Positions 22,418-60,310 are shown, counted from the stretch's first letter. The stretch: 64,000 nucleotides of DNA from Nemertoderma westbladi (GCA_032718475.1 JAUCBJ010000961.1:42417-106416), one strand, 5' to 3'. Notes: a model not told the origin generated them from the letters alone. Translations and numbers: made by a program.

Positions 22418-22717
22418 TTCCCCCAAGCTTGACACTAGAACAAAATCGCCTCCGCTTTGCAGGACATTGCTTTCGCCGTGAGGACCAGCCAGTGCATAAT
22501 CTTGTACTTTGGCAGCCTCATGGAGTGAATAAGAATGGTGGACAGCCCATGACTTTCTTGAGACGCATCTTAAAGGACACTGGCCTTAAAGATGCGGATG
22601 ATCTAGCAAATGTCATGGGTGATAGGGAGTTGTGGCGGTGCAATTTTGTTGACAAGCCGGCACAGCATTCTTAAAAATGCAGCTGCAATGCAGCATGCCG
22701 ATCCTAGTAGTAGTAGT
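22418..22717 (+). mobile_element. 5'-truncated RTE/RTEX-like LINE 3' end with (TAG)n tail, inserted in the array
   Basis: RLRFAGHCFR...LVLWQP...DTGL...MGDRELWR is typical of the RTE-clade ORF C-terminus; followed by a stop, a short UTR and ctagtagtagtagt. Confidence 0.85.
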
Positions 22718-31286: not shown

Positions 31287-34200
31287 CATCCGACAGCAAC
31301 CCACTCCATCCGGCTGCAACCCACTCCATCCGACTGCAACCCACCCAATCCGACAGCAACCCACTCCATCCGACAGCAACCCACCCCATCCTACAGCAAC
31401 CCACTCCATCCGACAGCAACCCACCCCATCCTACAGCAACCCACTCCATCCGACAGCAACCCACTCCATCCTACACCAACCCACTCCATCCGACAGCAAC
31501 CCACTCCATCCTACACCAACCCACTAAATTCGACAGCAACCCACCCAATCGGACAGCAACCCACCCCATCCGACAGCAACCCACTCCATCCGACAGCAAC
31601 CGACTCCATCCGACTGCAAACCCACCCAATCCGACAGCAACCCACTCCACCCGACAGCAACCCACCCAATCCGACAGCAACCCACTCCATCCGACAGCAA
31701 CCCACTCCATCCGACAGCAACCCACTCCATCCGGCAGCAACCCACTCCATCCGGCTGCAACCCACTCCATCCGACAGCAACCCACTCCATCCGACAGCAA
31801 CCCACCCAATCCGACAGCAACCCACTCCATCCGACAGCAACCCACTCCATCCGACAGCAACCGACTCCATCCGACAGCAACCCACCCAATCCGACAGCAA
31901 CCCACTCTATCCGACAGCAACCCACTCCATCCGACAGCAACCCACCCAATCCGACAGCAACCCACTCCATCCGACAGCAACCGACTCCATCCAACAGCAA
32001 CCCACCCAATCCGACAGCAACCCACTCCATCCGACAGCAACCCACCCAATCCGACAGCAACCCACTCCATCCGACAGCAACCCACTCCATCCGACAGCAA
32101 CCCACTCCATCCGACAGCAACCCACCCAATCCGACAGCAACCCACTCCATCCGACAGCAACCCACTCCATCCGACAGCAACCCACCCCATCCTACAGCAA
32201 CCCACTCCATCCGACAGCAACCCACTCCATCCTACACCAACCCACTCCATCCGACAGCAACCCACTCCATCCTACACCAACCCACTCCATCCGTCAGCAG
32301 CCCACTCCATCCGACAGCAACCCACTCCATCCGACAGCAACCCACCCCATCCGACAGCAACCCACTCCATCCGACAGCAACCGACAGCAACCCACCCAAT
32401 CCGACAGCAACCCACTCTATCCGACAGCAACCCACTCCATCCCCCGATAGCAACTCACTCTATCCGACAACAACTCACTCTATCCGACAACATCACACTC
32501 TATCCGACAACAACTCACTCTATCCGACAACAACTCACTCTATCCGACAACATCACACTCTATCCGACAACAACTCACTCTATCCGACAACAACTCACTC
32601 TATCCGACAGCAACCCACTCCATCCCCCGATAGCAACTCACTCTATCCGACAACAACTCACTCTATCCGACAACATCACACTCTATCCGACAACAACTCA
32701 CTCTATCCGACAACAACTCACTCTATCCGACAACATCACACTCTATCCGACAACAACTCACTCTATCCGACAACATCACACTCTATCCGACAACAACTCA
32801 CTCTATCCGACAACATCACACTCTATCCGACAACAACTCACTCTATCCGACAACATCACACTCTATCCGACAACAACTCACTCTATCCGACAACATCACA
32901 CTCTATCCGACAACAACTCACTCTATCCGACAACATCACACTCTATCCGACAACAACTCACTCTATCCGACAACATCACACTCTATCCGACAACATCACA
33001 CTCTATCCGACAACAACTCACTCTATCCGACAACATCACACTCTATCCGACAACATCACACTCTATCCGACAACAACTCACTCTATCCGACAACAACTCA
33101 CTCTATCCGACAGCTACCCACTCCATCCCCCGATAGCAACTCACTCTATCCGACAACAACTCACTCTATCCGACAACATCACACTCTATCCGACAACAAC
33201 TCACTCTATCCGACAACAACTCACTCTATCCGACAGCAACCCACTCCATCCCCCGATAGCAACTCACTCTATCCGACAACAACTCACTCTATCCGACAAC
33301 ATCACACTCTATCCGACAACAACTCACTCTATCCGACAACAACTCACTCTATCCGACAACATCACACTCTATCCGACAACAACTCACTCTATCCGACAAC
33401 ATCACACTCTATCCGACAACAACTCACTCTATCCGACAACATCACACTCTATCCGACAACAACTCACTCTATCCGACAACATCACACTCTATCCGACAAC
33501 AACTCACTCTATCCGACAACATCACACTCTATCCGACAACAACTCACTCTATCCGACAACATCACACTCTATCCGACAACAACTCACTCTATCCGACAAC
33601 ATCACACTCTATCCGACAACATCACACTCTATCCGACAACAACTCACTCTATCCGACAACATCACACTCTATCCGACAACATCACACTCTATCCGACAAC
33701 AACTCACTCTATCCGACAACAACTCACTCTATCCGACAGCAACCCACTCCATCCCCCGATAGCAACTCACTCTATCCGACAACAACTCACTCTATCCGAC
33801 AACATCACACTCTATCCGACAACAACTCACTCTATCCGACAACATCACACTCTATCCGACAACAACTCACTCTATCCGACAACATCACACTCTATCCGAC
33901 AACAACTCACTCTATCCGACAACAACTCACTCTATCCGACAACAACTCACTCTATCCTACACCAACCCACTCCATCCTACACCAACCCACTCCATCCGAC
34001 ACCAACCCATCTCTATCCGACAACAACTCACTCTATCCGACAACAACTCAATCTATCCGACAACAACTCACTCTATCCGACAACATCACACTCTATCCGA
34101 CAACAACTCACTCTATCCGACAACAACTCACTCTATCCGACAGCAACCCACTCCATCCTACACCAACCCACTCCATCCTACACCAATCCACTCCATCCTA

Positions 34201-37200
34201 CACCAACCCACTCCATCCTACACCAACCCACTCCATCCTACACCAACCCACTCCATCCTACACCAATCCACTCCATCCTACACCAACCCACTCCATCCTA
34301 CACCAACCCACTCCATCCTACACCAACCCATCTCTATCCGACAACAACCCACTCCATCCTACACCAACCCACTCCATCCTACACCAACCCACTCCATCCT
34401 ACACCAACCCATCTCTATCCGACAACAACCCACTCCATCCTACACCAACCCACTCCATCCTACACCAACCCACTCCATCCTACACCAACCCATCTCTATC
34501 CGACAACAACCCACTCCATCCTACACCAACCCACTCCATCCTACACCAACCCACTCCATCCTACACCAACCCACTCCATCCTACACCAACCCACTCCATC
34601 CTACACCAACCCACTCCATCCTACACCAATCCACTCCATCCTACACCAACCCACTCCATCCTACACCAACCCACTCCATCCTACACCAACCCATCTCTAT
34701 CCGACAACAACCCACTCCATCCTACACCAACCCACTCCATCCTACACCAACCCACTCCATCCTACACCAACCCATCTCTATCCGACAACAACCCACTCCA
34801 TCCTACACCAACCCACTCCATCCTACACCAACCCACTCCATCCTACACCAACCCATCTCTATCCGACAACAACCCACTCCATCCTACACCAACCCACTCC
34901 ATCCTACACCAACCCATCTCTATCCGACAACAACCCACTCCATCCTACACCAACCCACTCCATCCTACACCAACCCACTCCATCCTACACCAACCCACTC
35001 CATCCTACACCAACCCACTCCATCCTACACCAACCCATCTCTATCCGACAACAACCCACTCCATCCTACACCAACCCACTCCATCCTACACCAACCCACT
35101 CCATCCTACACCAACCCATCTCTATCCGACAACAACCCACTCCATCCTACACCAACCCACTCCATCCTACACCAACCCATCTCTATCCGACAACAACCCA
35201 CTCCATCCTACACCAACCCACTCCATCCTACACCAACCCATCTCTATCCGACAACAACCCACTCCATCCTACACCAACCCACTCCATCCTACACCAACCC
35301 ATCTCTATCCGACAACAACCCACTCCATCCTACACCAACCCACTCCATCCTACACCAACCCACTCCATCCTACACCAACCCATCTCTATCCGACAACAAC
35401 CCACTCCATCCTACACCAACCCACTCCATCCTACACCAACCCACTCCATCCTACACCAACCCATCTCTATCCGACAACAACCCACTCCATCCTACACCAA
35501 CCCATCTCTATCCGACAACAACCCACTCCATCCGACACCAACCCACTCCATCCTACACCAACCCACTCTATCCGACAACAACCCACTCCATCCTACACCA
35601 ACCCACTCCATCCTACACCAACCCACTCCATCCTACACCAACCCATCTCTATCCGACAACAACCCACTCCATCCTACACCAACCCACTCCATCCTACACC
35701 AACCCATCTCTATCCGACAACAACCCACTCCATCCTACACCAACCCACTCCATCCTACACCAACCCACTCCATCCTACACCAACCCATCTCTATCCGACA
35801 ACAACCCACTCCATCCTACACCAACCCACTCCATCCTACACCAACCCACTCCATCCTACACCAACCCATCTCTATCCGACAACAACCCACTCCATCCTAC
35901 ACCAACCCATCTCTATCCGACAACAACCCACTCCATCCTACACCAACCCACTCCATCCTACACCAACCCATCTCTATCCGACAACAACCCACTCCATCCT
36001 ACACCAACCCACTCCATCCTACACCAACCCACTCCATCCTACACCAACCCATCTCTATCCGACAACAACCCACTCCATCCTACACCAACCCACTCCATCC
36101 TACACCAACCCACTCCATCCTACACCAACCCATCTCTATCCGACAACAACCCACTCCATCCTACACCAACCCACTCCATCCTACACCAACCCACTCCATC
36201 CTACACCAACCCATCTCTATCCGACAACAACCCACTCCATCCTACACCAACCCACTCCATCCTACACCAACCCACTCCATCCTACACCAACCCATCTCTA
36301 TCCGACAACAACCCACTCCATCCTACACCAACCCACTCCATCCTACACCAACCCACTCCATCCTACACCAACCCATCTCTATCCGACAACAACCCACTCC
36401 ATCCTACACCAACCCACTCCATCCTACACCAACCCATCTCTATCCGACAACAACCCACTCCATCCTACACCAACCCACTCCATCCTACACCAACCCATCT
36501 CTATCCGACACCAACCCACTCCATCCTACACCAACCCACTCCATCCTACACCAACCCATCTCTATCCGACAACAACCCACTCCATCCTACACCAACCCAC
36601 TCCATCCTACACCAACCCACTCCATCCTACACCAACCCATCTCTATCCGACAACAACCCACTCCATCCTACACCAACCCACTCCATCCTACACCAACCCA
36701 TCTCTATCCGACAACAACCCACTCCATCCTACACCAACCCACTCCATCCTACACCAACCCATCTCTATCCGACAACAACCCACTCCATCCTACACCAACC
36801 CACTCCATCCTACACCAACCCATCTCTATCCGACAACAACCCACTCCATCCTACACCAACCCACTCCATCCTACACCAACCCACTCCATCCTACACCAAC
36901 CCATCTCTATCCGACAACAACCCACTCCATCCTACACCAACCCACTCCATCCTACACCAACCCATCTCTATCCGACAACAACCCACTCCATCCTACACCA
37001 ACCCACTCCATCCTACACCAACCCACTCCATCCTACACCAACCCATCTCTATCCGACAACAACCCACTCCATCCTACACCAACCCACTCCATCCTACACC
37101 AACCCACTCCATCCTACACCAACCCATCTCTATCCGACAACAACCCACTCCATCCTACACCAACCCATCTCTATCCGACAACAACCCACTCCATCCTACA

Positions 37201-38447
37201 CCAACCCACTCCATCCTACACCAACCCATCTCTATCCGACAACAACCCACTCCATCCTACACCAACCCACTCCATCCTACACCAACCCACTCCATCCTAC
37301 ACCAACCCATCTCTATCCGACAACAACCCACTCCATCCTACACCAACCCACTCCATCCTACACCAACCCACTCCATCCTACACCAACCCATCTCTATCCG
37401 ACAACAACCCACTCCATCCTACACCAACCCACTCCATCCTACACCAACCCACTCCATCCTACACCAACCCATCTCTATCCGACAACAACCCACTCCATCC
37501 TACACCAACCCACTCCATCCTACACCAACCCATCTCTATCCGACAACAACCCACTCCATCCTACACCAACCCACTCCATCCTACACCAACCCATCTCTAT
37601 CCGACAACAACCCATCTCTATCCGACAACAACCCACTCCATCCTACACCAACCCACTCCATCCTACACCAACCCATCTCTATCCGACAACAACCCACTCC
37701 ATCCTACACCAACCCACTCCATCCTACACCAACCCATCTCTATCCGACAACAACCCACTCCATCCTACACCAACCCACTCCATCCTACACCAACCCATCT
37801 CTATCCGACAACAACCCACTCCATCCTACACCAACCCACTCCATCCTACACCAACCCACTCCATCCTACACCAACCCATCTCTATCCGACAACAACCCAC
37901 TCCATCCTACACCAACCCACTCCATCCTACACCAACCCACTCCATCCTACACCAACCCATCTCTATCCGACAACAACCCACTCCATCCTACACCAACCCA
38001 CTCCATCCTACACCAACCCACTCCATCCTACACCAACCCATCTCTATCCGACAACAACCCACTCCATCCTACACCAACCCACTCCATCCTACACCAACCC
38101 ATCTCTATCCGACAACAACCCACTCCATCCTACACCAACCCACTCCATCCTACACCAACCCATCTCCATCCGACACCAACCCACTCCATCCTACACCAAC
38201 CCACTCCATCCTACACCAACCCACTCCATCCTACACCAACCCATCTCTATCCGACAACAACCCACTCCATCCTACACCAACCCACTCCATCCTACACCAA
38301 CCCATCTCTATCCGACAACAACCCACTCCATCCTACACCAACCCACTCCATCCTACACCAACCCACTCCATCCTACACCAACCCACTCCATCCTACACCA
38401 ACCCACTCCATCCTACACCAACCCATCTCTATCCGACAACATCACAC
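31287..38447. repeat. 7.2 kb 20/21-bp CA-rich minisatellite with three variant domains
   Basis: CCACTCCATCCGACAGCAAC, then TCACTCTATCCGACAACAAC, then (CCACTCCATCCTACACCAAC)n + CCATCTCTATCCGACAACAAC. Confidence 0.99.
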
Positions 38448-38480
38448 TGCATTCGAGATAAACACGAAACGCCCTCTATA

Positions 38481-38636
38481 TCACTCATTAATAACATATT
38501 TCTTCTTTCTGCCCATTTTCTCTTTGAGTTTTAGCATTTTATGTTGTTCTTTTTTATCTTTCTCGAAGATCGTCTTCAAATCTTTAATTTGTCTCTTTAA
38601 TCGGCGTTTGTCATTCGAGTTGTGAATACCAAGCAC
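38481..38636 (-). CDS. PPP1R9A: Neurabin/spinophilin last coding exon (SAM end and basic coiled-coil tail, stop TGA)
   Basis: ttattttAG| then VLGIHNSNDKRRLKRQIKDLKTIFEKDKKEQHKM...VINE*; resembles the neurabin-1 post-SAM tail; phase 0. Confidence 0.85.
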   Translation of the reverse strand: MLGIHNSNDKRRLKRQIKDLKTIFEKDKKEQHKMLKLKEKMGRKKKYVINE

Positions 38637-39188: not shown

Positions 39189-39347
39189 CTTCATCTTGCT
39201 GGAGTCCAATTGGAGCAACTGAGTGATATCTATCGAGTGTTCAATGAATACAGGAAGGAGGCTGTCCATCTCGATATTGGTCAGCCATTGCCTAACTTCA
39301 TCCGGCCCCCAATCGCCTATTGGTTTATTGATTCCCGACAAACAATC
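39189..39347 (-). CDS. PPP1R9A: Neurabin exon, SAM domain
   Basis: cattacAG|DCLSGINKPIGDWGPDEVRQWLTNIEMDSLLPVFIEHSIDITQLLQLDSSKMK|GTTTGC; classic SAM pattern; phase 0/0. Confidence 0.9.
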
Positions 39348-41905: not shown

Positions 41906-42105
41906 ACTTAGTCCTTGACTGCCGTCACTGTCAATAGAACCGGAATGTTTCCGAGATGGAGTGTTCATATTGGTTAATTGGGGACTGTCTCTGGCCGGTT
42001 GGGCGCGGGATCTCTCCTGGGCGTCGTCCAATCGGTCTGTAGAAGGAATTCCAAAACCCAGTGACGTCTTCGACACCCCTTCATCTTCGTCACTAACATA
42101 TGCTA
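41906..42105 (-). CDS. PPP1R9A: Neurabin exon (Ser/acidic low complexity)
   Basis: ttcttacacAG...|GTAAGC; VAYVSDEDEGV...DSDGSQGLS; phase 1 to 0 fits both neighbours. Confidence 0.75.
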
Positions 42106-42214: not shown

Positions 42215-42289
42215 CGTTCGCAGTCAAATCAAATGCGTCATTTCCAGCCCCGTAATCGCTACATCTGGAACTCATTTTACTCGTCTCAT
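42215..42289 (-). CDS. PPP1R9A: Neurabin exon (75 nt)
   Basis: ccttttacAG...ACG|GTAAGT; DETSKMSSRCSDYGAGNDAFDLTAN; phase 1/1. Confidence 0.75.
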
Positions 42290-42645
42290 CTGTAAAAGGA
42301 ATATAGTTTTCTTATAAGTTACAGTTCCATAAAGTATTCAGTAATTAATTAAATTAATTAAAATTCACAATAATATTTTAACACAATTTTTTCAAAAATG
42401 TTCTAGAGAGTTTTTTTAACGATCTTTTAAAAACCTTTCAAACGGGCCATAAATCATCGAATTCGAGTGAAAAATGGCGGAGGAGTCGAATAGGAGTTGA
42501 AAAATCGAATACGTCTGTCTGATGACGGGTTGTCTGTCTGTCTGTCTTCTAAATTTTGACGGACAACTGGTGAACGGAAAGACAGCGATAACTCGAGAAC
42601 TAAAATTTAATAAAACAACCAAAAAATGCGAAACTTCTACCCAAC

Positions 42646-45600
42646 TTACTTACCTTAGCTACTGTTGGGGGAGTTACTTACCTTGGGTACTGTTGGGGGA
42701 GTTACTTACCTTGGGTACTGTTGGGGGAGTTACTTACCTTGGGTACTGTTGGGGGAGTTACTTACCTTGGGTACTGTTGGGGGAGTTACTTACCTTGGGT
42801 ACTGTTGGGGGAGTTACTTACCTTGGCTACTGTTGGGGGAGTTACTTACCTTGGCTACTGTTGGGGGAGTTACTTACCTTGGCTACTGTTGGGGGAGTTA
42901 CTTACCTTGGGTACTGTTGGGGGAGTTACTTACCTTGGGTACTGTTGGGGGAGTTACTTACCTTGGCTACTGTTGGGGGAGTTACTTACCTTGGCTACTG
43001 TTGGGGGAGTTACTTACCTTGGGTACTGTTGGGGGAGTTACTTACCTTGGCTACTGTTGGGGGAGTTACTTACCTTGGGTACTGTTGGGGGAGTTACTTA
43101 CCTTGGCTACTGTTGGGGGAGTTACTTACCTTGGTACTGTGGTACTGTTGGGGGAGTTACTTACCTTGGGTACTGTTGGGGGAGTTACTTACCTTGGGTA
43201 CTGTTGGGGGAGTTACTTACCTTGGCTACTGTTGGGGGAGTTACTTACCTTGGGTACTGTTGGGGGAGTTACTTACCTTGGCTACTGTTGGGGGAGTTAC
43301 TTACCTTGGCTACTGTTGGGGGAGTTACTTACCTTGGGTACTGTTGGGGGAGTTACTTACCTTGGCTACTGTTGGGGGAGTTACTTACCTTGGCTACTGT
43401 TGGGGGAGTTACTTACCTTGGGCTACTGTTGGGGGAGTTACTTACCTTGGGTACTGTTGGGGGAGTTACTTACCTTGGGTACTGTTGGGGGAGTTACTTA
43501 CCTTGGGTACTGTTGGGGGAGTTACTTACCTTGGCTACTGTTGGGGGAGTTACTTACCTTGGCTACTGTTGGGGGAGTTACTTACCTTGGCTACTGTTGG
43601 GGGAGTTACTTACCTTGGGTACTGTTGGGGGAGTTACTTACCTTGGCTACTGTTGGGGGAGTTACTTACCTTGGCTACTGTTGGGGGAGTTACTTACCTT
43701 GGGCTACTGTTGGGGGAGTTACTTACCTTGGGTACTGTTGGGGGAGTTACTTACCTTGGGTACTGTTGGGGGAGTTACTTACCTTGGGTACTGTTGGGGG
43801 AGTTACTTACCTTGGGTACTGTTGGGGGAGTTACTTACCTTGGCTACTGTTGGGGGAGTTACTTACCTTGGGCTACTGTTGGGGGAGTTACTTACCTTGG
43901 GTACTGTTGGGGGAGTTACTTACCTTGGGTACTGTTGGGGGAGTTACTTACCTTGGGTACTGTTGGGGGAGTTACTTACCTTGGCTACTGTTGGGGGAGT
44001 TACTTACCTTGGGTACTGTTGGGGGAGTTACTTACCTTGGGTACTGTTGGGGGAGTTACTTACCTTGGGTACTGTTGGGGGAGTTACTTACCTTGGCTAC
44101 TGTTGGGGGAGTTACTTACCTTGGGCTACTGTTGGGGGAGTTACTTACCTTGGGTACTGTTGGGGGAGTTACTTACCTTGGGTACTGTTGGGGGAGTTAC
44201 TTACCTTGGCTACTGTTGGGGGAGTTACTTACCTTGGCTACTGTTGGGGGAGTTACTTACCTTGGCTACTGTTGGGGGAGTTACTTACCTTGGGCTACTG
44301 TTGGGGGAGTTACTTACCTTGGGTACTGTTGGGGGAGTTACTTACCTTGGCTACTGTTGGGGGAGTTACTTACCTTGGCTACTGTTGGGGGAGTTACTTA
44401 CCTTGGCTACTGTTGGGGGAGTTACTTACCTTGGGTACTGTTGGGGGAGTTACTTACCTTGGCTACTGTTGGGGGAGTTACTTACCTTGGCTACTGTTGG
44501 GGGAGTTACTTACCTTGGCTACTGTTGGGGGAGTTACTTACCTTGGCTACTGTTGGGGGAGTTACTTACCTTGGGTACTGTTGGGGGAGTTACTTACCTT
44601 GGCTACTGTTGGGGGAGTTACTTACCTTGGCTACTGTTGGGGGAGTTACTTACCTTGGCTACTGTTGGGGGAGTTACTTACCTTGGGTACTGTTGGGGGA
44701 GTTACTTACCTTGGGTACTGTTGGGGGAGTTACTTACCTTGGCTACTGTTGGGGGAGTTACTTACCTTGGCTACTGTTGGGGGAGTTACTTACCTTGGCT
44801 ACTGTTGGGGGAGTTACTTACCTTGGGCTACTGTTGGGGGAGTTACTTACCTTGGCTACTGTTGGGGGAGTTACTTACCTTGGCTACTGTTGGGGGAGTT
44901 ACTTACCTTGGCTACTGTTGGGGGAGTTACTTACCTTGGGTACTGTTGGGGGAGTTACTTACCTTGGGTACTGTTGGGGGAGTTACTTACCTTGGCTACT
45001 GTTGGGGGAGTTACTTACCTTGGCTACTGTTGGGGGAGTTACTTACCTTGGCTACTGTTGGGGGAGTTACTTACCTTGGCTACTGTTGGGGGAGTTACTT
45101 ACCTTGGCTACTGTTGGGGGAGTTACTTACCTTGGCTACTGTTGGGGGAGTTACTTACCTTGGCTACTGTTGGGGGAGTTACTTACCTTGGCTACTGTTG
45201 GGGGAGTTACTTACCTTGGCTACTGTTGGGGGAGTTACTTACCTTGGCTACTGTTGGGGGAGTTACTTACCTTGGCTACTGTTGGGGGAGTTACTTACCT
45301 TGGCTACTGTTGGGGGAGTTACTTACCTTGGGTACTGTTGGGGGAGTTACTTACCTTGGGTACTGTTGGGGGAGTTACTTACCTTGGCTACTGTTGGGGG
45401 AGTTACTTACCTTGGCTACTGTTGGGGGAGTTACTTACCTTGGCTACTGTTGGGGGAGTTACTTACCTTGGCTACTGTTGGGGGAGTTACTTACCTTGGC
45501 TACTGTTGGGGGAGTTACTTACCTTGGCTACTGTTGGGGGAGTTACTTACCTTGGCTACTGTTGGGGGAGTTACTTACCTTGGGCTACTGTTGGGGGAGT

Positions 45601-48600
45601 TACTTACCTTGGCTACTGTTGGGGGAGTTACTTACCTTGGCTACTGTTGGGGGAGTTACTTACCTTGGCTACTGTTGGGGGAGTTACTTACCTTGGCTAC
45701 TGTTGGGGGAGTTACTTACCTTGGCTACTGTTGGGGGAGTTACTTACCTTGGCTACTGTTGGGGGAGTTACTTACCTTGGCTACTGTTGGGGGAGTTACT
45801 TACCTTGGCTACTGTTGGGGGAGTTACTTACCTTGGCTACTGTTGGGGGAGTTACTTACCTTGGCTACTGTTGGGGGAGTTACTTACCTTGGCTACTGTT
45901 GGGGGAGTTACTTACCTTGGCTACTGTTGGGGGAGTTACTTACCTTGGCTACTGTTGGGGGAGTTACTTACCTTGGGTACTGTTGGGGGAGTTACTTACC
46001 TTGGCTACTGTTGGGGGAGTTACTTACCTTGGCTACTGTTGGGGGAGTTACTTACCTTGGCTACTGTTGGGGGAGTTACTTACCTTGGCTACTGTTGGGG
46101 GAGTTACTTACCTTGGCTACTGTTGGGGGAGTTACTTACCTTGGCTACTGTTGGGGGAGTTACTTACCTTGGCTACTGTTGGGGGAGTTACTTACCTTGG
46201 CTACTGTTGGGGGAGTTACTTACCTTGGCTACTGTTGGGGGAGTTACTTACCTTGGCTACTGTTGGGGGAGTTACTTACCTTGGCTACTGTTGGGGGAGT
46301 TACTTACCTTGGCTACTGTTGGGGGAGTTACTTACCTTGGCTACTGTTGGGGGAGTTACTTACCTTGGCTACTGTTGGGGGAGTTACTTACCTTGGCTAC
46401 TGTTGGGGGAGTTACTTACCTTGGCTACTGTTGGGGGAGTTACTTACCTTGGCTACTGTTGGGGGAGTTACTTACCTTGGCTACTGTTGGGGGAGTTACT
46501 TACCTTGGCTACTGTTGGGGGAGTTACTTACCTTGGCTACTGTTGGGGGAGTTACTTACCTTGGCTACTGTTGGGGGGAGTTACTTACCTTGGCTACTGT
46601 TGGGGGAGTTACTTACCTTGGCTACTGTTGGGGGAGTTACTTACCTTGGCTACTGTTGGGGGAGTTACTTACCTTGGCTACTGTTGGGGGAGTTACTTAC
46701 CTTGGCTACTGTTGGGGGAGTTACTTACCTTGGCTACTGTTGGGGGAGTTACTTACCTTGGCTACTGTTGGGGGAGTTACTTACCTTGGCTACTGTTGGG
46801 GGAGTTACTTACCTTGGCTACTGTTGGGGGAGTTACTTACCTTGGCTACTGTTGGGGGAGTTACTTACCTTGGGTACTGTTGGGGGAGTTACTTACCTTG
46901 GCTACTGTTGGGGGAGTTACTTACCTTGGCTACTGTTGGGGGAGTTACTTACCTTGGGTACTGTTGGGGGAGTTACTTACCTTGGCTACTGTTGGGGGAG
47001 TTACTTACCTTGGCTACTGTTGGGGGAGCTTACTTACCTTGGGTACTGTTGGGGGAGTTACTTACCTTGGCTACTGTTGGGGGAGTTACTTACCTTGGCT
47101 ACTGTTGGGGGAGTTACTTACCTTGGGTACTGTTGGGGGAGTTACTTACCTTGGCTACTGTTGGGGGAGTTACTTACCTTGGCTACTGTTGGGGGAGTTA
47201 CTTACCTTGGCTACTGTTGGGGGAGTTACTTACCTTGGCTACTGTTGGGGGAGTTACTTACCTTGGCTACTGTTGGGGGAGTTACTTACCTTGGCTACTG
47301 TTGGGGGAGTTACTTACCTTGGCTACTGTTGGGGGAGTTACTTACCTTGGCTACTGTTGGGGGAGTTACTTACCTTGGCTACTGTTGGGGGAGTTACTTA
47401 CCTTGGCTACTGTTGGGGGAGTTACTTACCTTGGGTACTGTTGGGGGAGTTACTTACCTTGGCTACTGTTGGGGGAGTTACTTACCTTGGCTACTGTTGG
47501 GGGAGTTACTTACCTTGGGTACTGTTGGGGGAGTTACTTACCTTGGCTACTGTTGGGGGAGTTACTTACCTTGGCTACTGTTGGGGGAGTTACTTACCTT
47601 GGGTACTGTTGGGGGAGTTACTTACCTTGGCTACTGTTGGGGGAGTTACTTACCTTGGCTACTGTTGGGGGAGTTACTTACCTTGGGTACTGTTGGGGGA
47701 GTTACTTACCTTGGCTACTGTTGGGGGAGTTACTTACCTTGGCTACTGTTGGGGGAGTTACTTACCTTGGGTACTGTTGGGGGAGTTACTTACCTTGGGT
47801 ACTGTTGGGGGAGTTACTTACCTTGGGTACTGTTGGGGGAGTTACTTACCTTGGGTACTGTTGGGGGAGTTACTTACCTTGGCTACTGTTGGGGGAGTTA
47901 CTTACCTTGGCTACTGTTGGGGGAGTTACTTACCTTGGGTACTGTTGGGGGAGTTACTTACCTTGGCTACTGTTGGGGGAGTTACTTACCTTGGCTACTG
48001 TTGGGGGAGTTACTTACCTTGGGTACTGTTGGGGGAGTTACTTACCTTGGGTACTGTTGGGGGAGTTACTTACCTTGGGTACTGTTGGGGGAGTTACTTA
48101 CCTTGGGTACTGTTGGGGGAGTTACTTACCTTGGGTACTGTTGGGGGAGTTACTTACCTTGGGTACTGTTGGGGGAGTTACTTACCTTGGCTACTGTTGG
48201 GGGAGTTACTTACCTTGGCTACTGTTGGGGGAGTTACTTACCTTGGGTACTGTTGGGGGAGTTACTTACCTTGGGTACTGTTGGGGGAGTTACTTACCTT
48301 GGGTACTGTTGGGGGAGTTACTTACCTTGGGTACTGTTGGGGGAGTTACTTACCTTGGCTACTGTTGGGGGAGTTACTTACCTTGGGTACTGTTGGGGGA
48401 GTTACTTACCTTGGGTACTGTTGGGGGAGTTACTTACCTTGGGTACTGTTGGGGGAGTTACTTACCTTGGGTACTGTTGGGGGAGTTACTTACCTTGGGT
48501 ACTGTTGGGGGAGTTACTTACCTTGGGTACTGTTGGGGGAGTTACTTACCTTGGGTACTGTTGGGGGAGTTACTTACCTTGGGTACTGTTGGGGGAGTTA

Positions 48601-49903
48601 CTTACCTTGGCTACTGTTGGGGGAGTTACTTACCTTGGGTACTGTTGGGGGAGTTACTTACCTTGGGTACTGTTGGGGGAGTTACTTACCTTGGGTACTG
48701 TTGGGGGAGTTACTTACCTTGGGTACTGTTGGGGGAGTTACTTACCTTGGGTACTGTTGGGGGAGTTACTTACCTTGGGTACTGTTGGGGGAGTTACTTA
48801 CCTTGGGTACTGTTGGGGGAGTTACTTACCTTGGGTACTGTTGGGGGAGTTACTTACCTTGGGCTACTGTTGGGGGAGTTACTTACCTTGGGTACTGTTG
48901 GGGGAGTTACTTACCTTGGGTACTGTTGGGGGAGTTACTTACCTTGGGTACTGTTGGGGGAGTTACTTACCTTGGGTACTGTTGGGGGAGTTACTTACCT
49001 TGGCTACTGTTGGGGGAGTTACTTACCTTGGGTACTGTTGGGGGAGTTACTTACCTTGGGTACTGTTGGGGGAGTTACTTACCTTGGCTACTGTTGGGGG
49101 AGTTACTTACCTTGGCTACTGTTGGGGGAGTTACTTACCTTGGGTACTGTTGGGGGAGTTACTTACCTTGGGTACTGTTGGGGGAGTTACTTACCTTGGC
49201 TACTGTTGGGGGAGTTACTTACCTTGGCTACTGTTGGGGGAGTTACTTACCTTGGCTACTGTTGGGGGAGTTACTTACCTTGGGTACTGTTGGGGGAGTT
49301 ACTTACCTTGGGTACTGTTGGGGGAGTTACTTACCTTGGGTACTGTTGGGGGAGTTACTTACCTTGGGTACTGTTGGGGGAGTTACTTACCTTGGCTACT
49401 GTTGGGGGAGTTACTTACCTTGGGTACTGTTGGGGGAGTTACTTACCTTGGCTACTGTTGGGGGAGTTACTTACCTTGGGTACTGTTGGGGGAGTTACTT
49501 ACCTTGGCTACTGTTGGGGGAGTTACTTACCTTGGGTACTGTTGGGGGAGTTACTTACCTTGGGTACTGTTGGGGGAGTTACTTACCTTGGGTACTGTTG
49601 GGGGAGTTACTTACCTTGGGTACTGTTGGGGGAGTTACTTACCTTGGGTACTGTTGGGGGAGTTACTTACCTTGGGTACTGTTGGGGGAGTTACTTACCT
49701 TGGGTACTGTTGGGGGAGTTACTTACCTTGGGTACTGTTGGGGGAGTTACTTACCTTGGGTACTGTTGGGGGAGTTACTTACCTTGGGTACTGTTGGGGG
49801 AGTTACTTACCTTGGGTACTGTTGGGGGAGTTACTTACCTTGGCTACTGTTGGGGGAGTTACTTACCTTGGCTACTGTTGGGGGAGTTACTTACCTTGGC
49901 TAC
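42646..49903 (-). repeat. 28-bp minisatellite (about 260 units); on - it reads TA(G/C)CCAAG|GTAAGTAACTCCCCCAACAG, an amplified exon-intron junction
   Basis: Directly visible; the first unit overlaps the end of exon 49895-50031. Confidence 0.99.
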
Positions 49904-50031
49904 AACTGTTGTCTATACATGTTTCTGTTAAGCCACCCATTTGCAGGACGTCGTCAAAAGACAACCTATTCCTAACGTTGTCTTCCGCCCTTCCACCGGG
50001 TTGCTCTGGACTCCCAACCACAGGTAAATCT
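49895..50031 (-). CDS. PPP1R9A: Neurabin exon whose donor site seeds the 28-bp array
   Basis: tattttTAG|(R)DLPVVGSPEQPGGRAEDNVRNRLSFDDVLQMGGLTETCIDNSCSQ|GTAAGT; phase 2 to 1. Confidence 0.8.
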
Positions 50032-50127
50032 CTAAAAATAACACATTACGATTACATAACAAACCATACAAATAACAAACTAGCGTTAGTAATACGTAAT
50101 CAACAAACCCTAATCAATTAGACTTAC

Positions 50128-50253
50128 CTGGAAGACAAATTAGTTGATACTGTTGTGTTATCAGGAGATTTACAATTGACCAATCGCTGATCAGCTTTCA
50201 GTTTCTCTATAACAATGTGGGCGTCGCACAGTTGTTCAGCTAAATCTGCCTCT
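50128..50253 (-). CDS. PPP1R9A: Neurabin exon (end of coiled coil)
   Basis: ttaccttcTAG|(R)EADLAEQLCDAHIVIEKLKADQRL...NLSS CAG|GTAAGT; phase 2/2; continues ...EVQER-E. Confidence 0.8.
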
Positions 50254-50271
50254 CTAGAAGGTAAACAACCG

Positions 50272-50285
50272 GTTACTATGGTAAC
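50272..50285. promoter_or_regulatory. X-box-like near palindrome GTTACTATGGTAAC
   Basis: Fits the 14-bp RFX consensus; 2.1 kb upstream of the WDR17 ATG. Confidence 0.4.
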
Positions 50286-50572
50286 GAGGGATAAATATTA
50301 TTATTATAGGTAATTATAATGTGTGGTCTGCTTTCTGGGTTGTTATGCTATACCCTTTTGTATTTCGAGAGAGAGGAGGGGGGGGGGGGGGGGGGGGGGG
50401 TCATGACGCATATCTCATCTCGGGGAGTAAACAATGTAAGTAATCAATTAAGAGAAATGAGCAGGTTACAGCGGCACGCTATTCTAACCAAAACAATAAA
50501 CGAGAGTCAATGTCATAGGTTATAGTTTAATTTTTGGGAGTAATCAGCTGATATTTGGGTTGAATTTTCCCT

Positions 50573-52160: not shown

Positions 52161-52184
52161 CTGGCGTAGTCATGTGCACCAGTA
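52161..52184 (-). other. Candidate 24-nt frame-preserving neurabin microexon
   Basis: tttgtgttacAG|TACTGGTGCACATGACTACGCCAG|GTAAGG; open in phase 2 (STGAHDYAR). Confidence 0.4.
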
Positions 52185-52374: not shown

Positions 52375-55300
52375 ATGGATTCTATCTGTGCAACCCTGGG
52401 GGGTCAACCAGTAGTGATTGGAGCACGACAGGTTGTGTTACAACCAGCGGGATGCCAGCAGCACCACCGTAACATCATAGGAATCAACAAGGACCACACT
52501 ATGTTGGCCTACTGCGCCACACTAGCTGTCTACGTGTACGTGGCGGGAAGGGAAGCCACAGAGAACTGGTTGCTCAGCGGGGTCATGTCGCATCATAAAA
52601 AGGCGATAACAGCACTGCAATGGTCGCCCCACCAGGCAGCTCTGTTCGCCAGCGCAAGTAACGACCCTGTAATCTGCGTTTGGAACGCGAAGGAACAATG
52701 TCTGGTGGTGGAACTGCATTCCATAGTCGACGTACCGTTCTGCATCGGGTGGTGCTATGACGACACGCAGAGCATTGCTTTCAGCTATGACGTCACCTCC
52801 TCCAAGGCAACTAACGTTTACGTATGGAACACAGGGTCGGGCAAATGTAAACCCCATAAACACATTGCTGGTTTCAGTTCCGGGATCAGAACGTTTAGAT
52901 GGAACGGTATTAGGTTGGGTAAAGTAATAGTGGGGCACGAGAACGGAAGTATATCTCTTTATACGCCGGGTAATAAAGTAATCAAACACATACTGAAACC
53001 GGAGTATTCTGAGAGCAATAGCAACGACCCAGTGACTTCACTGCAGTGGGACCCGTTGTCCCCGGACTACGTCCTGGTAGTTAACAAGTGGAGCGGAGTC
53101 CGACTGCTGGACTCGGAATCCCGTACGACCGCGATGCGGTTCGCGAACACTCGGAACGCAGGGATTCAGGACGTCTCGTGGGTGGAGAACGCGCCGGGAA
53201 CGTTCCTCTCCGGGGACAGTCGGCTGGGCGTGCTCGGCGTGTGGAACGTGTCGCAGCCGGCCCCGCTCGCGAGCGTCCAGATCCGAGCGAGCGGGTTCAA
53301 CGCGATCGTGGGACTGCCACGGGACTCCGGGGGGAGGGGCTCCAACCCCGAGTCGCCCCCCGGGACACCAACCCGCGCGTTCTGCGCGTTCCGCGACGGA
53401 GCCACTGGCATCTACGACGTTCCGCTCCGCCAATGGGACTTCCTCCTGGACGCCGGGCACAGCGAGACGATATTCGACTGCCGGTTCCATCCCACGGACC
53501 CCGACAGACTGGCGACGGCCAGCTACGACGGGACCATAAAGATAACGGATCTGCCGACGATGAAAGTTGTCGAGACGTCGCCCCGAGTGCGAGCCATCGT
53601 CTACAGCCTCTCGTGGGCGCCGCCGCAGTGGAACTGCATCACAGGATCAACCAATCAGGGCTCGGTATTCGTGTGGAACGTGGATAAATCCAAGATCAGC
53701 CATCAGTACACGGAGCACGCGAGTAGCGGGACGGGGGTTTGCGTCTACGTGTGTAAATGGAATCAACGCAAACCGGATTGGATCGCGAGTAGCGGCAGTG
53801 ACGGTCGGTGTATCGTACGGGAGGTTACCGGGACGCTGGTACGCAGTTACACGCACCCCGCCGGGGTCTACGGCTGCGACTGGCACCCCAACAACGGCCA
53901 CGTACTGGCGACGGGTTGCCACGACGGAAACCTCCGGATATTCAACGCGGCGACCGATGCCACCGCGACCCACACCGTCGCGCTGCACGGTAAACGGGTG
54001 TTCCACGTGGTCTGGCACCCCTTGTTGCCGGGTTACCTGGCGACGGGTAGCGACGACTCCACGGCCAAGGTGTACGACTACGGCGCGGGACTCACCGTGG
54101 CCACGGTAACGGGACACACGGCCCCGGTGCGAGGGATGGTGTGGCACACTGAGTTGCCCTGGCTGCTCATCACCGGCAGTTGGGACTCGACGGTGCGAAT
54201 GTGGGACATCCGGAGCTCCGCCTGTCTGCAGACGCTGGACAGCCACGAAGCCGACATTTACGGGTTGTCGGTTCACCCGGACAGACCTTTCCTGCTGGCG
54301 TCCACCTCCCGGGACTCCACACTGCGACTGTGGCACCTCGCGGGGCTGTCCGCATTGCTATACGCGCGGATGGTTGCTACCGGAGTCGCCGCGTTGCTTG
54401 GCGACCCATCGACGTCCATGGATCAGGACGCGGCCCCGTTACTATGCGGAAGGAGGTCGGCCCAGCTCGGCTCGTCTCCGCAGGTCGGCTCGACGCCGCA
54501 GCTCGACTCGACTCCGCATCTCGACTCGACTCCGCATCTCGGCTCGACTGATTCAACCACCGACCCCCCCGCACTTACACGAACCTTCACTACATTCCTC
54601 CACCACTCCCCGCGACTCCCCAACCTATACGACCTCGTCTCCCTCCTCCAGGGCTCATCCCACTTCTCCCAACTCTCCTCCCGCTATCCCGCCTCCGTGG
54701 TCCACCACCGACACCTCCTCCGACTGCGAGCATCGGAGGCTCGCGCGCTCGAGTTCGCCTCGAGCAACGCGAGCTCGGAGCGCTCGCGAGTGGCGCAACT
54801 GAGCGCCGCGCGCGAGTTGTACTGCAACCTGGGCGAGCGGCGACGCTACTGCGAGGTCAGCGTGCGGCTGGGGGAGTGGGTGGAAGCGTTGGCTGTCGCA
54901 CCCGCGGTCAGTCTAGATTACTGGAGACAGTTAGTCGCCCAATACACAGACCAGCTCTCAGACAATCACAGCGGTCAGCAGTCAGCCAATCAGAGCGCTC
55001 GTCTATCGACGGCGATTTGTAACGACCAGCGAACCGTTGACTATCTGATTCATCGAGGAGAGTTGGAACAAGCGCTGTTTGTAGCTACAGCAGCAAGTTC
55101 TAGAACGCAGGAAGGATCGAATTCTAGAACGCTGGAAAATGCCATGGTTCTGGGAGGAGACAATAACGTGATGGAACCCTCAGCCCCTGATCTACCGTTA
55201 CTAAGCAACCAGCCGACTCCACTCTCATCAGACCTTCTACCAAAGGTCAATGAACTCTTCACTAAGGTCACTGACCCCTCAGTACTGCGGTGCAGTCGCA

Positions 55301-56382
55301 TATTAGCGGAACGCGCCTTCAATAACGGTGACTGCGTGACGTCAGCATGTCACTATCTATCGGTTGACGACGTCACTGGCGCCATAGAAACGCTGCTACA
55401 TGGCAACGAGCCGAGTCTCGCTCTATCCGTGGCGTTGTCTCTGCGTGCGGCCTCCGGAGACATTCCAGCGCAGACAGACGCCACCCAGCGGCAACTAAAC
55501 GCAATAGCGAGGATCCTACTGATGCGCTGCGAGAAGCTGCGGGAGAGTAAACTCGCCGCCGATCTTCTCCGCAAGGTGGCGCCGCACGCCGACGCCCTGG
55601 CGACCGAGTACTGCGCCCGGAACCACGACGCCACCGACCTCAGACAGTCCCGCGGTCTCCCGACCAGGGAGAGATGCCATTTAGCGGCCGAGGCGCACGA
55701 GTCGACGCGAGAGGCGGTCCGTTACTACGCGATGTCCGCGACTCCGGAACTCGCTGTTGCTATGGGGATCCCGGAAGTGGTCGCGGCTATGAACCGGGAG
55801 GGGTTTGATATCGAGGAGGTTGACCCGTTACTGGGCCTCCTGCAGTCCGTAGACACCGCCGTCTACAGCAGAGACCCGTACAGACACAGAGGGGCCGAGT
55901 TACTGGTGGTGAGCGCCTACACAGGCGCACTGAAAGCGATCCGGCTGGGGTTCCATACCATAGTCCCTTCTCTATTCCTATTGGCCAAGCAACTGTTGTC
56001 GGGGTGGGAGGGGTCTAACCAGCAGTCCAGCGCCCTCAGACTGACAGCGGAGACCGTGCTAAGAGAACTAGACACCTGGAGATCGATGCAGAACTCAGGC
56101 GGGGGAAACATGTCTCCAGACTGCATGGCTCTCTGCAGAAAATGCTGCGTAGACATACGGCAAGTGCGACAGCCTAGACTCATAGTCTCCGCCGGTAGTC
56201 AGTTGCCCTGCCATGGTAACGCTTGTATCTCCATAGTAACCCACACTAGGATTAAAGGGGAAGCTTACTGTTTGGGAGACGGGAAGGCGGGTCCAATGAT
56301 GTCATTAGACGAGGCGTTAATGTGGGTAGAGGTGAACCCGTTCTCACCTTTAGGGACATTCCACAGACTCAACCCTTACTAA
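52375..56382 (+). CDS. WDR17: WD repeat-containing protein 17, single-exon CDS nested antisense in a neurabin intron
   Basis: 1335 aa. N-terminal AGCQ...AYCATLAVYVY...MSHHKKAIT, GHSETIFDCRF, many WD40 repeats, and C-terminal SLDEALMWVEVNPFSPLGTFHRLNPY are WDR17 signatures. Confidence 0.95.
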   Translation: MDSICATLGGQPVVIGARQVVLQPAGCQQHHRNIIGINKDHTMLAYCATLAVYVYVAGREATENWLLSGVMSHHKKAITALQWSPHQAALFASASNDPVICVWNAKEQCLVVELHSIVDVPFCIGWCYDDTQSIAFSYDVTSSKATNVYVWNTGSGKCKPHKHIAGFSSGIRTFRWNGIRLGKVIVGHENGSISLYTPGNKVIKHILKPEYSESNSNDPVTSLQWDPLSPDYVLVVNKWSGVRLLDSESRTTAMRFANTRNAGIQDVSWVENAPGTFLSGDSRLGVLGVWNVSQPAPLASVQIRASGFNAIVGLPRDSGGRGSNPESPPGTPTRAFCAFRDGATGIYDVPLRQWDFLLDAGHSETIFDCRFHPTDPDRLATASYDGTIKITDLPTMKVVETSPRVRAIVYSLSWAPPQWNCITGSTNQGSVFVWNVDKSKISHQYTEHASSGTGVCVYVCKWNQRKPDWIASSGSDGRCIVREVTGTLVRSYTHPAGVYGCDWHPNNGHVLATGCHDGNLRIFNAATDATATHTVALHGKRVFHVVWHPLLPGYLATGSDDSTAKVYDYGAGLTVATVTGHTAPVRGMVWHTELPWLLITGSWDSTVRMWDIRSSACLQTLDSHEADIYGLSVHPDRPFLLASTSRDSTLRLWHLAGLSALLYARMVATGVAALLGDPSTSMDQDAAPLLCGRRSAQLGSSPQVGSTPQLDSTPHLDSTPHLGSTDSTTDPPALTRTFTTFLHHSPRLPNLYDLVSLLQGSSHFSQLSSRYPASVVHHRHLLRLRASEARALEFASSNASSERSRVAQLSAARELYCNLGERRRYCEVSVRLGEWVEALAVAPAVSLDYWRQLVAQYTDQLSDNHSGQQSANQSARLSTAICNDQRTVDYLIHRGELEQALFVATAASSRTQEGSNSRTLENAMVLGGDNNVMEPSAPDLPLLSNQPTPLSSDLLPKVNELFTKVTDPSVLRCSRILAERAFNNGDCVTSACHYLSVDDVTGAIETLLHGNEPSLALSVALSLRAASGDIPAQTDATQRQLNAIARILLMRCEKLRESKLAADLLRKVAPHADALATEYCARNHDATDLRQSRGLPTRERCHLAAEAHESTREAVRYYAMSATPELAVAMGIPEVVAAMNREGFDIEEVDPLLGLLQSVDTAVYSRDPYRHRGAELLVVSAYTGALKAIRLGFHTIVPSLFLLAKQLLSGWEGSNQQSSALRLTAETVLRELDTWRSMQNSGGGNMSPDCMALCRKCCVDIRQVRQPRLIVSAGSQLPCHGNACISIVTHTRIKGEAYCLGDGKAGPMMSLDEALMWVEVNPFSPLGTFHRLNPY

Positions 56383-57045: not shown

Positions 57046-58012
57046 GTTCGAGTCTCCAGCGCGATTGGGTACAGAGACAAGGGTTCGAGTCTCCAGAGCG
57101 ATTGGGTACAGAGACAAGGGTTCGAGTCTCCAGCGCGATTGGGTACAGAGACAAGGGTTCGAGTCTCCAGAGCGATTGGGTACAGAGACAAGGGTTCGAG
57201 TCTCCAGAGCGATTGGGTACAGAGACAAGGGTTCGAGTCTCCAGAGCGATTGGGTACAGTGTCAAGGGTTCGAGTCTCCAGAGCGATTGGGTACAGAGAC
57301 AAGGGTTCGAGTCTCCAGAGCGATTGGGTACAGAGACAAGGGTTCGAGTCTCCAGCGCGATTGGGTACAGAGACAAGGGTTCGAGTCTCCAGCGCGATTG
57401 GGTACGGAGACAAGGGTTCGAGTCTCCAGAGCGATTGGGTACAGAGACAAGGGTTCGAGTCTCCAGAGCGATTGGGTACAGAGACAAGGGTTCGAGTCTC
57501 CAGAGCGATTGGGTACAGAGACAAGGGTTCGAGTCTCCAGAGCGATTGGGTACAGAGACAAGGGTTCGAGTCTCCAGAGCGATTGGGTACAGAGACAAGG
57601 GTTCGAGTCTCCAGAGCGATTGGGTACAGAGACAAGGGTTCGAGTCTCCAGCGAGATTGGGTACAGAGACAAGGGTTCGAGTCTCCAGAGCGATTGGGTA
57701 CAGAGACAAGGGTTCGAGTCTCCAGAGCGATTGGGTACAGAGACAAGGGTTCGAGTCTCCAGAGCGATTGGGTACAGAGACAAGGGTTCGAGTCTCCAGA
57801 GCGATTGGGTACAGAGACAAGGGTTCGAGTCTCCAGAGCGATTGGGTACAGAGACAAGGGTTCGAGTCTCCAGAGCGATTGGGTACAGAGACAAGGGTTC
57901 GAGTCTCCAGAGCGATTGGGTACAGAGACAAGGGTTCGAGTCTCCAGAGCGATTGGGTACAGAGACAAGGGTTCGAGTCTCCAGTGCGATTGGGTACAGA
58001 GACAAGGGTTCG
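57046..58012. repeat. 37-bp minisatellite GGGTTCGAGTCTCCAGAGCGATTGGGTACAGAGACAA, about 26 units
   Basis: Directly visible and highly homogeneous; intronic. Confidence 0.99.
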
Positions 58013-58065: not shown

Positions 58066-58289
58066 CTCTCCTGTACCTCACGCAGCAACTTTTTCGCTTT
58101 CGTGTACTTTTTATCCAACCACTGCAGAGTCTCTTCCCGTTCCCCTAGTAACGTCTGCAGCTCCACCAGACTGTATTGTGACTCCTTGTAGGCCTGTTCC
58201 CGACTCTGATTGGCCAGTTTCTCTGCCTCTTCACATCTGGCCCGCAGTCGATCCATCTCGGTACTCATTGTTGCGTTCACTTCCTCCAA
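58066..58289 (-). CDS. PPP1R9A: Neurabin exon, coiled coil
   Basis: ttattcTAG|LEEVNATM...LDKKYTKAKKLLREVQER|GTAAGG; KYxKAKKL is the conserved neurabin coiled-coil motif; phase 0 to 2. Confidence 0.9.
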
Positions 58290-58578
58290 CTAGAATAAAC
58301 AATAGGAACCACCATCGTACAACCTGTTGCATTCACAATAACTTTAGGTCGATCAAACTTACATGTTGACTCTTTATAATATAGAACCGAACTCCAGTTA
58401 TGGGGGGGGGGGGGGGGGGTGTAATCGGCGCGAAAATAAAACTGTAACCTGTTTTATTGTTTTGGTTAGAATAACCTGCCGCTGTATCCTGCTCCTTTCC
58501 CTTAATTACATTGAGACGAGATATTACAACGAGATGGTATTTGCGTAATCCCCCCCCCCCATATATCTCCAAACTCAC

Positions 58579-58731
58579 ATGCCTACATTGACTCATGACT
58601 TCTTCCAATCTTTTGGCGCTGGCGTCTTCTATTAGTTCGCTCTCATAGGCGCCTTCTGTATCAACATTATCATCACTCGAGGCCTCAGCCTCCCCTGAGG
58701 ACGAACCGGCATCAGCCATAGACAATGTGTG
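58579..58731 (-). CDS. PPP1R9A: Neurabin exon (acidic)
   Basis: tttctgtttgCAG|HTLSMADAG...LEEVMSQCRH|GTGAGT; phase 0/0. Confidence 0.8.
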
Positions 58732-59323: not shown

Positions 59324-59522
59324 TTCTATTTGGTTCTGTACTTTTAGTAATCCGTCGTCGGGTTCATCCTGGTTGAGTAATCCGCGATCAGTGGTGTCTG
59401 CCTGGTTGTTGGACTTATCAACCCAACCGTTATACGGCGGAGGGCACTCCTCCTCGTCTCTAGGTGGGGGCCCGGGACTAGTAGAAGGGCTGGGACTAGA
59501 GTTGTAACCAACATCCGATCTC
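59324..59522 (-). CDS. PPP1R9A: Neurabin exon (Pro/acidic linker)
   Basis: ttatTAG|(R)RSDVGYNSSPSPSTSPGPPPRDEEE...LLKVQNQIE|GTGAGT; phase 2 to 0; a different frame from the listed ORF. Confidence 0.8.
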
Positions 59523-59816
59523 CTAATAACATTAATAGATCGGTAACCTAACCAACATCGGATACGATACGATACGATACGATGACGTATCGTATCGTAT
59601 TCAATAACATGACCGACCTACTACTGTTATATAGTAGTAGGTCATAGTTGTAATTACTTGATACTGGATCTCAGACCTTTGTTGGAGATTAATGGCAAAC
59701 GAATAGAATATAAATTGAACTAACCCTGGGCGTCTCATAAATGTCTACAATATTAGTCCCTGGTTAATTAATGTAGGTTAATTGTTAGACTTAATTAAGG
59801 AAATTGACCAACCAAC

Positions 59817-59983
59817 CTCCTAGCTTGCTCCTGGTGTTCCTGTTGCTGTCGTAGCAACTGGGCCACTTCGCTGTCTTCTGGTCGGTGTTCCCTTCCGATA
59901 ACAAAATGAACGTATCCGTTTGTGTTCCGTAATACAGAGGCAGCGAACGCCTGAGTTACACCAACTAACGACTTCCCGTCAAC
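59817..59983 (-). CDS. PPP1R9A: Neurabin exon, C-terminal half of the PDZ domain; upstream exons not identified in the window
   Basis: [32 protein letters not shown]...SEVAQL matches the neurabin/spinophilin PDZ; ttgCAG acceptor and AG|GTTGGT donor. Confidence 0.92.
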
Positions 59984-60310
59984 CTGCAACCAATCAACGT
60001 ACGAGTTACATCAACTAACGACTTCCCGCCAACCTGCAACCAATCAACGTACGAGTTACACCAACTAACGACTTCCCGCCAACCTGCAACCAATCAACGT
60101 ACGAGTTACACCAACTAACGACTTCCCGCCAACCTGCAACCAATCAACGTACGAGTTACACCAACTAACGACTTCCCGCCAACCTGCAACCAATCAACGT
60201 ACGAGTTACACCAACTAACGACTTCCCGTCAACCCTCAACCAATCAACGTACGAGTTACACCAACTAACGACTTCCCGTCAACCCTTAACCAATCAACGT
60301 ATGACTTACA
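59953..60310 (-). repeat. 50-bp tandem repeat (7 units) of the PDZ exon's acceptor plus its first 31 nt
   Basis: The unit on - is GTACGTTGATTGGTTGCAG|GTTG(A/G)CGGGAAGTCGTTAGTTGGTGTAACTC. Confidence 0.97.

Follow-up and report, generated by a model that had tools for sequence, protein, structure and literature searches.

A gene identified by its sequence as neurabin/spinophilin, on the minus strand of a 64,000-nt stretch of Nemertoderma westbladi DNA (GCA_032718475.1, JAUCBJ010000961.1:42417-106416; hereafter the window, with positions counted from its first letter), carries hundreds of full-consensus decoy 5' splice sites 28 nt apart within a single intron. The sites belong to a 28-bp minisatellite whose first unit contains the authentic exon-intron junction. 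The explanation we favour, and regard as likely, is that the array is a length-variable minisatellite over a real neurabin junction, probably grown by repeat instability and probably tolerated since the spliceosome commits to the most upstream donor. Splice-donor minisatellites are a class already known, of which the neurabin array is a large, clean example, and on present evidence no new mechanism is revealed.

Anatomy of the donor array and its host gene

Tandem Repeats Finder (TRF) reports a head-to-tail array at 42646-49903 with 258.6 copies of the 28-bp unit and 98% matches. On the minus strand there are 259 GGTAAGTAA sites, the first with its GT at 49894 and the last with its GT at 42653. 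The 258 units between these donors comprise 143 of G-type, 103 of C-type, 8 hybrid G/C units (29 nt) and 4 singletons, and AAG|GTAAGTA and CAACAG are kept in all 258. The intron (49894-42290; 7,605 nt) is 95.3% array and switches to unique sequence immediately 3' of the last donor. As in the known class, the authentic junction lies inside the first unit, so that the donor is reiterated within the intron.

42646-49903 (-): 28-bp minisatellite with 259 donor copies AAG|GTAAGTAA, first unit over the exon-intron junction (TRF and site count)
49887-49897 (-): genuine 5' splice site, the first of the series, with its GT at 49894 (in the X4 contig 49895 is followed by the exon starting at 42289)
42290-49894 (-): intron of 7,605 nt, 95.3% array, ending 3' in about 350 nt of unique sequence (X4 junction and gene model)
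42646-42656 (-): last copy of the donor (GT at 42653), between a C>T variant unit and unique intron (site count)
49895-50031 (-): neurabin coding exon, 137 nt, phase 2 in and phase 1 out, its 3' end the likely seed of the unit (frame need and spliced X4 contig)
42215-42289 (-): downstream 75-nt exon, phase 1-1, skippable in frame (X4 contig and gene model)

The first-pass annotation of the window, made from the sequence alone, had described about 260 tandem donors filling about 95% of a 7.6-kb intron, every unit with AAG|GTAAGTA and a CAG, and the counts above agree with it. Its description of the donors as perfect stands in one sense only: the copies pair at 9 of 11 positions with the U1 5' end, fewer than the ordinary neighbouring donor at 50128 (10 of 11), but they match in full the MAG/guragu consensus as printed in PMC1557585. 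Amplification from the gene's own exon end was likewise correct in that the unit consists of the last exon bases, the donor and a short C-run, whereas a 3-nt deletion means that it is not an exact exon copy. A 2,469-codon open reading frame (ORF) runs antisense through the array (42522-49931, +); it was rejected as a gene, being a by-product of a repeat unit that is stop-free in all plus-strand frames.

The annotation's assignment of the host gene to neurabin is supported by two of its exons. For the PDZ exon (59983-59817), 8 PDB sequences of neurabin/spinophilin PDZ structures lie at E <= 0.01 (the best being neurabin-2 at E 2e-15) and named neurabin/Spn proteins match as well; exon 39347-39189 matches SAM (Pfam SAM_2, E 9e-6; also SAM_1). 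The ten joined exons form a single stop-free frame of 531 codons with one terminal stop. The exon upstream of the array (50031-49895) has no Pfam match and its end has no match (0) in metagenome contigs. It is required for the frame, as leaving it out gives a stop at codon 290. Use of any of the 258 internal donors (258/258) would give a stop at codon 337, ahead of the SAM domain, in line with the earlier claim that only the first donor yields full-length protein, while the 75-nt exon 42289-42215 can be skipped with no change of frame. The shortest of the nine introns is 96 nt. The remaining exons, and a second junction-spanning minisatellite in the same gene, are as follows.

59953-60310 (-): another minisatellite over a splice junction, the PDZ-exon acceptor, with 7.2 copies of a 50-bp unit (TRF; X4 contig stops at 59985)
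59817-59983 (-): neurabin PDZ C-terminal exon (X4 contig, PDB and protein matches)
59324-59522 (-): neurabin coding exon (X4 joints and frame)
58579-58731 (-): neurabin coding exon (X4 joints and frame)
58066-58289 (-): neurabin coding exon, coiled-coil-like by inspection, no Pfam match (X4 contig and frame)
50128-50253 (-): neurabin coding exon upstream of the likely seed exon (X4 joint 50031-50128)
41906-42105 (-): predicted neurabin coding exon (phase and frame fit only)
39189-39347 (-): SAM-domain exon, lost with any internal donor (Pfam SAM_1/SAM_2)
38481-38636 (-): predicted last coding exon with the stop (frame)

A stretch of 24 nt at 52161-52184 (-), flanked by AG and GTAAG, is a candidate microexon that would keep the frame; it is absent from the X4 contig, where 58066 is joined straight to 50253.

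Use of the first donor and array length in different samples

Of six runs on record (X1-X6), none of them registered as RNA, the contig sets of four were compared: X1 (sample S1), X2 and X3 (both sample S2) and X4 (sample S3). X4 is on record as 'DNA?' and was recognised as spliced from the joints of its contig (3,848 nt, depth 68.5), in which four joints skip CT..AC stretches and two loose ends run into neighbouring exons. The contig leaves the reference at 49895, and its loose end there reads, in reverse complement, as the exon that starts at 42289. The first, genuine donor is used, being joined to 42289 in this one spliced contig as expected if the most upstream donor gives the main mRNA, and the prediction that exon 50031-49895 is real and joined to 42289 is confirmed. 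At the PDZ exon the contig stops at 59985, which corresponds to use of the last, exon-adjacent acceptor of the 50-bp array. No alternative junction was seen in the X4 contig, and contigs drop rare isoforms. X4 has no contig on the 28-bp units and a single 67-nt contig on the intronic 37-mer described below; this silence says nothing about rare donor use or the S3 allele, because rare variants are dropped from such contig sets and isolated non-circular contigs <150 bp are discarded (PMC12424806).

Array length was compared between samples using within-run ratios, because the depth of a contig does not equate to copy number and all three arrays show a difference of about 5-8-fold between X2 and X3. 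In X1 the two main unit contigs have depths of 715.6 and 515.6 compared with 3.3-6.9 on the unique flanks, and the G share of the units (0.581) is equal to that of the window (0.581). For X3, which has no contig cover on the unique array flank, single-copy depth was taken from another stretch. The ratio of unit to flank depth corresponds to about 180-380 units in X1, 5-22 in X2 and 1-3 in X3, rough figures from two samples without spanning reads, to which copies elsewhere in the genome could add at any array. The ratio of 28-mer to 50-mer depth is 65-281 in X1 (window 36) and 0.10-0.27 in X2 and X3, and that of 28-mer to 37-mer depth is 16 in X1 (window 10) and 0.15-0.22 in S2. An X2 record at 49874-50375 has the exon running on into a repeat unit, so that the junction-spanning unit is found in S2 also.

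These ratios suggest that the donor array is much shorter and the acceptor array longer in S2. On the rough depths S1 has about 180-380 units and S2 about 1-22, with the control array shifted oppositely, and the donor array thus seems tens to hundreds of times shorter in the second sample. A general library bias against repeats does not explain this, because the donor and acceptor arrays shift in opposite directions. Together the depths are a strong indication that the array is a length-variable minisatellite. The 37-bp minisatellite may be multi-locus, which would make it weaker as a depth control. In X2, a second haplotype of lower depth was seen at 59733-59876, which differs by three substitutions within the PDZ exon and lacks 4 nt at about 59807 (about 10 nt into the intron). 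X2 and X3, which have the same sample label, differ at several sites and S2 may be pooled.

Origin of the array and competing explanations

Junction-spanning minisatellites that reiterate a donor 10-25 times are described for human 6-16, CBS intron 13, LMNB2 and PDGF intron 4 (PMC1557585). In the 37-bp variable number tandem repeat (VNTR) of human F7 intron 7 (Borensztajn et al. 2006, PMC1557585) the first unit also lies over the junction, the donors are identical, the length is polymorphic and the most upstream donor is used. In F7 minigenes carrying 1-12 monomers splicing was confined to the most upstream site, and downstream sites competed only once they had been brought to perfect consensus opposite a weaker first site. 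F7 differs from neurabin in having 5-9 units and a weak donor (consensus value (CV) 74) compared with 259 units and a full-consensus donor, and the function of its downstream copies was shown by mutation, whereas those of neurabin are candidate donors. In 6-16 and CBS two further donor copies are also used (PMC1557585), while in neurabin the first is the only donor seen, in one contig. The scale of the neurabin array falls within the range of the human ABCA7 intron 18 VNTR (De Roeck et al. 2018, PMC5954066), which extends from 298 bp to 10,678 bp (about 12-427 units) with a 25-bp unit starting at the donor. The two share a unit that starts with the exon's GT donor, an in-frame skippable exon downstream and a frameshift with nonsense-mediated decay (NMD) upon retention of one unit, which in neurabin is predicted. 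The ABCA7 donor is given as GT only, whereas the neurabin unit also holds the exonic AAG. In ABCA7, one-unit retention is about 2% and not length-dependent while skipping of the next exon is length-dependent, and the effect of length on exon skipping and expression is documented, whereas in neurabin such an effect is hypothetical. Lancelet mirages (Adh3 and the globins BflGb6/BflGb9; PMC3087553) are tandem boundary copies of unstable length at both 5' and 3' boundaries that leave splicing undisturbed, matching the presence of donor and acceptor arrays in one neurabin gene; their units, of 10-160 bp, are few in number (3 and 6 for BflGb6) compared with the 259 near-identical ones in neurabin, and they belong to another lineage.

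The favoured reading would begin with a short imperfect duplication of the exon end and donor, accompanied by the 3-nt deletion. Because the unit has this deletion a simple exact duplication does not explain the seed, and we infer at least one further step. Slippage or unequal exchange would then expand the unit, giving blocks of G- and C-type units and the recurring hybrid. The first donor would win by exon definition across the 137-nt exon or by 5'-to-3' first-come commitment, as shown in human F7, and the remaining copies would be removed with the intron. Since every site matches the full consensus equally, a degree of leakage to donor 2 is plausible. Transcripts with a premature stop are degraded by NMD, and rare use of donor 2 or later, with a stop two codons beyond the exon, would probably follow that route at low cost. 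A mirror rule would apply at the PDZ exon, with the exon-adjacent (last) acceptor used.

The distribution of unit variants is what local duplication would be expected to leave. Units of G- and C-type form clusters, with 80 runs compared with 120.8 +/- 7.8 in 10,000 shuffles (0 as low), and seven of the eight hybrid units lie within units 154-231. The first-pass annotation had placed the main G/C polymorphism outside the donor, and all six distinct variant events do miss it. Donor invariance is, however, no evidence of selection, because six events missing the 9-nt donor motif has P = 0.10 (P 0.05 for an 11-nt motif). In the 20 nt after the last donor (42626-42645, -) there is a 7-nt reverse-complement match to the unit, a length that 18 of 1,024 control 20-mers reach in this post hoc comparison; it is possibly a template-switch trace of the seed. 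Masking of the internal donors by RNA structure was considered and is not supported, as the unpaired probabilities in folding are 0.63 for the first donor, 0.61 for the second, 0.09 for the third and mostly 0.4-0.5 for the internal donors.

Several points weigh against the favoured reading. Splicing of the 259-unit allele is deduced rather than seen, the RNA being one contig from S3, a sample whose allele may be of another length, and low-level use of internal donors would escape in contigs that drop rare isoforms. Donor competition may exceed that in F7 as all copies are full-consensus, though the first site is equally strong; F7 pseudo-sites raised to perfect consensus (CV 100) took 70-90% of splicing from the weaker first site (PMC1557585). 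The harmlessness of the array is not guaranteed because the length of the ABCA7 VNTR altered splicing and expression (PMC5954066). On the side of length, depth is an indirect measure, the two runs under one sample label disagree, as noted above, and X1, with its equal G share, may be the source individual and so not independent support.

The few units in the S2 runs and an array length without spanning reads could be taken to mean that the long array is an over-expanded collapse or a read error. We give this hardly any credence: the unit contigs of X1 reach 716 and 516 against a unique depth of 3.3-6.9, which rules out a pure assembly artefact, the G:C share in X1 equals that of the window, and the variant blocks are structured. 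The closest competitor is a length-tuned splicing modifier resembling ABCA7, where long alleles would lower full-length neurabin by donor competition together with NMD, or by skipping of the 75-nt exon. We consider it unlikely, and equally doubtful is its component that copy number serves as a dosage or isoform dial, selected or not. All 258 internal donors are full-consensus and each leads to a stop ahead of the SAM domain; the frame survives skipping of exon 42289-42215, and array length seems to differ greatly between samples. ABCA7 exon-19 skipping rises 3.2-4.1-fold with VNTR length (PMC5954066) and perfect pseudo-sites compete in F7 (PMC1557585); yet the ABCA7 isoform retaining one unit is constant with length, F7 site choice is unchanged from 1 to 12 monomers, and no alternative junction was seen in neurabin. 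In its fullest form, to which we assign a low probability, neurabin output would be tuned, through SAM-less or NMD forms or skipping of the 75-nt exon, by a series of natural alleles that range from about 1-10 to about 260 full-consensus donors, together with a reciprocal acceptor array in the gene. If length does change isoform ratios, neurabin would join ABCA7 as a second natural example in which a repeat controls splicing, and the allelic-series dial, if true, would be a repeat-length splicing dial far from vertebrates and a test of the upstream-donor rule at consensus strength.

Two further proposals of the first-pass annotation, stepwise splicing and a U1 sink or telescripting platform, were not borne out. 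Recursive removal, in which the intron would be taken out piecewise with ratchet points at the AAG|GT junctions of the units or at the CAG lying 8 nt before the GT, is very improbable. Each unit does hold AG|GT, CAG and a TAAC branch-like motif, the pyrimidines at -20 to -4 (9-11 of 17) overlap those of the gene's true acceptors (9-13 of 17), and zero-length steps would be invisible in mRNA. The junction is, however, AAG|GT and not the YAG|GT consensus (PMC5126111), the CAG is 8 nt upstream of the GT, and T occupies 2-3 of the 17 positions compared with 7-10 of 17 at all ten true acceptors (10/10). Units of 20 nt are far too short when the shortest intron of the gene is 96 nt; a ratchet would be superfluous in an intron that measures only about 350 nt once the array is taken away; and samples under one species label seem to differ greatly in how many sites they have, which is not the conservation expected of ratchet points. 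A selected U1 platform shielding the transcript from premature polyadenylation is more improbable still. The 259 sites pair at 9 of 11 positions with the U1 5' end, and folding predicts the donors to be partly unpaired (mean about 0.4-0.6 for most), making some U1 binding plausible. For the two hexamers counted, there is little for telescripting to protect, because the 7,605-nt intron holds no AATAAA (0) and one ATTAAA, neither being in the array, while two introns without donor arrays carry more (AATAAA + ATTAAA, 4+8 and 3+8). S2 appears to do without a long array. U1 is abundant in the cell relative to a few nascent transcripts, which could bind only a tiny share of it.

A neutral expansion tolerated by the spliceosome is the best fit of the four readings that the annotation had offered, given the apparently short array in S2, a window that is 57.7% minisatellite and the existence of a described class. 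If splicing of the long allele is confirmed, the F7 rule that the most upstream site wins would extend to an animal that is not vertebrate-like. The locus is of value as a test system, with short and long alleles seemingly in one species and a donor and an acceptor array in one gene.

Repeat-rich surroundings and neighbouring genes

The window contains ten minisatellites, which make up the 57.7% and have a GC content of 47-68% compared with 35% in the background and 47% in exons. Two of the four arrays in the neurabin gene overlap a splice junction; P is 0.011 naively and 0.14 without the array that prompted the finding, and this was not counted as evidence. In the PDZ-acceptor array CAG|G is present in five of seven units, and the last unit alone is in register. 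A 7.2-kb array of a 20-mer (31287-38456) starts about 25 nt past the stop codon predicted for neurabin. Once the remaining coding exons are accounted for, about 480 nt of the X4 contig are left over (1,071 minus 590), and S3 may lack this long array of the 3' untranslated region or carry further exons. A minisatellite of 18.8 kb with a 23-bp unit lies at 3810-23269 and has a short unique insert at 4234-4496.

The intronic 37-bp minisatellite (57046-58012) has a unit with a B-box-like GTTCGAGTC motif, which we take to be like that of a tRNA or short interspersed element (SINE). At 58453-58508, in a 289-nt intron, there is a short interspersed element of very high copy number, with a summed depth of >100,000 in the three DNA runs, which is also present in X4.

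Two intron-free genes adjoin the intron-rich neurabin gene. A single-ORF WDR17-like gene (52375-56382, +; 1,335 aa) is nested antisense in the 7.8-kb neurabin intron 58065-50254, and its protein has 32-40% identity to the 120 matches listed, nearly all of which are vertebrate. The second, at 1576-3204 (+), is a single ORF for a TPR protein of 542 aa, which in our estimation resembles BBS4; both genes are possibly ciliary.

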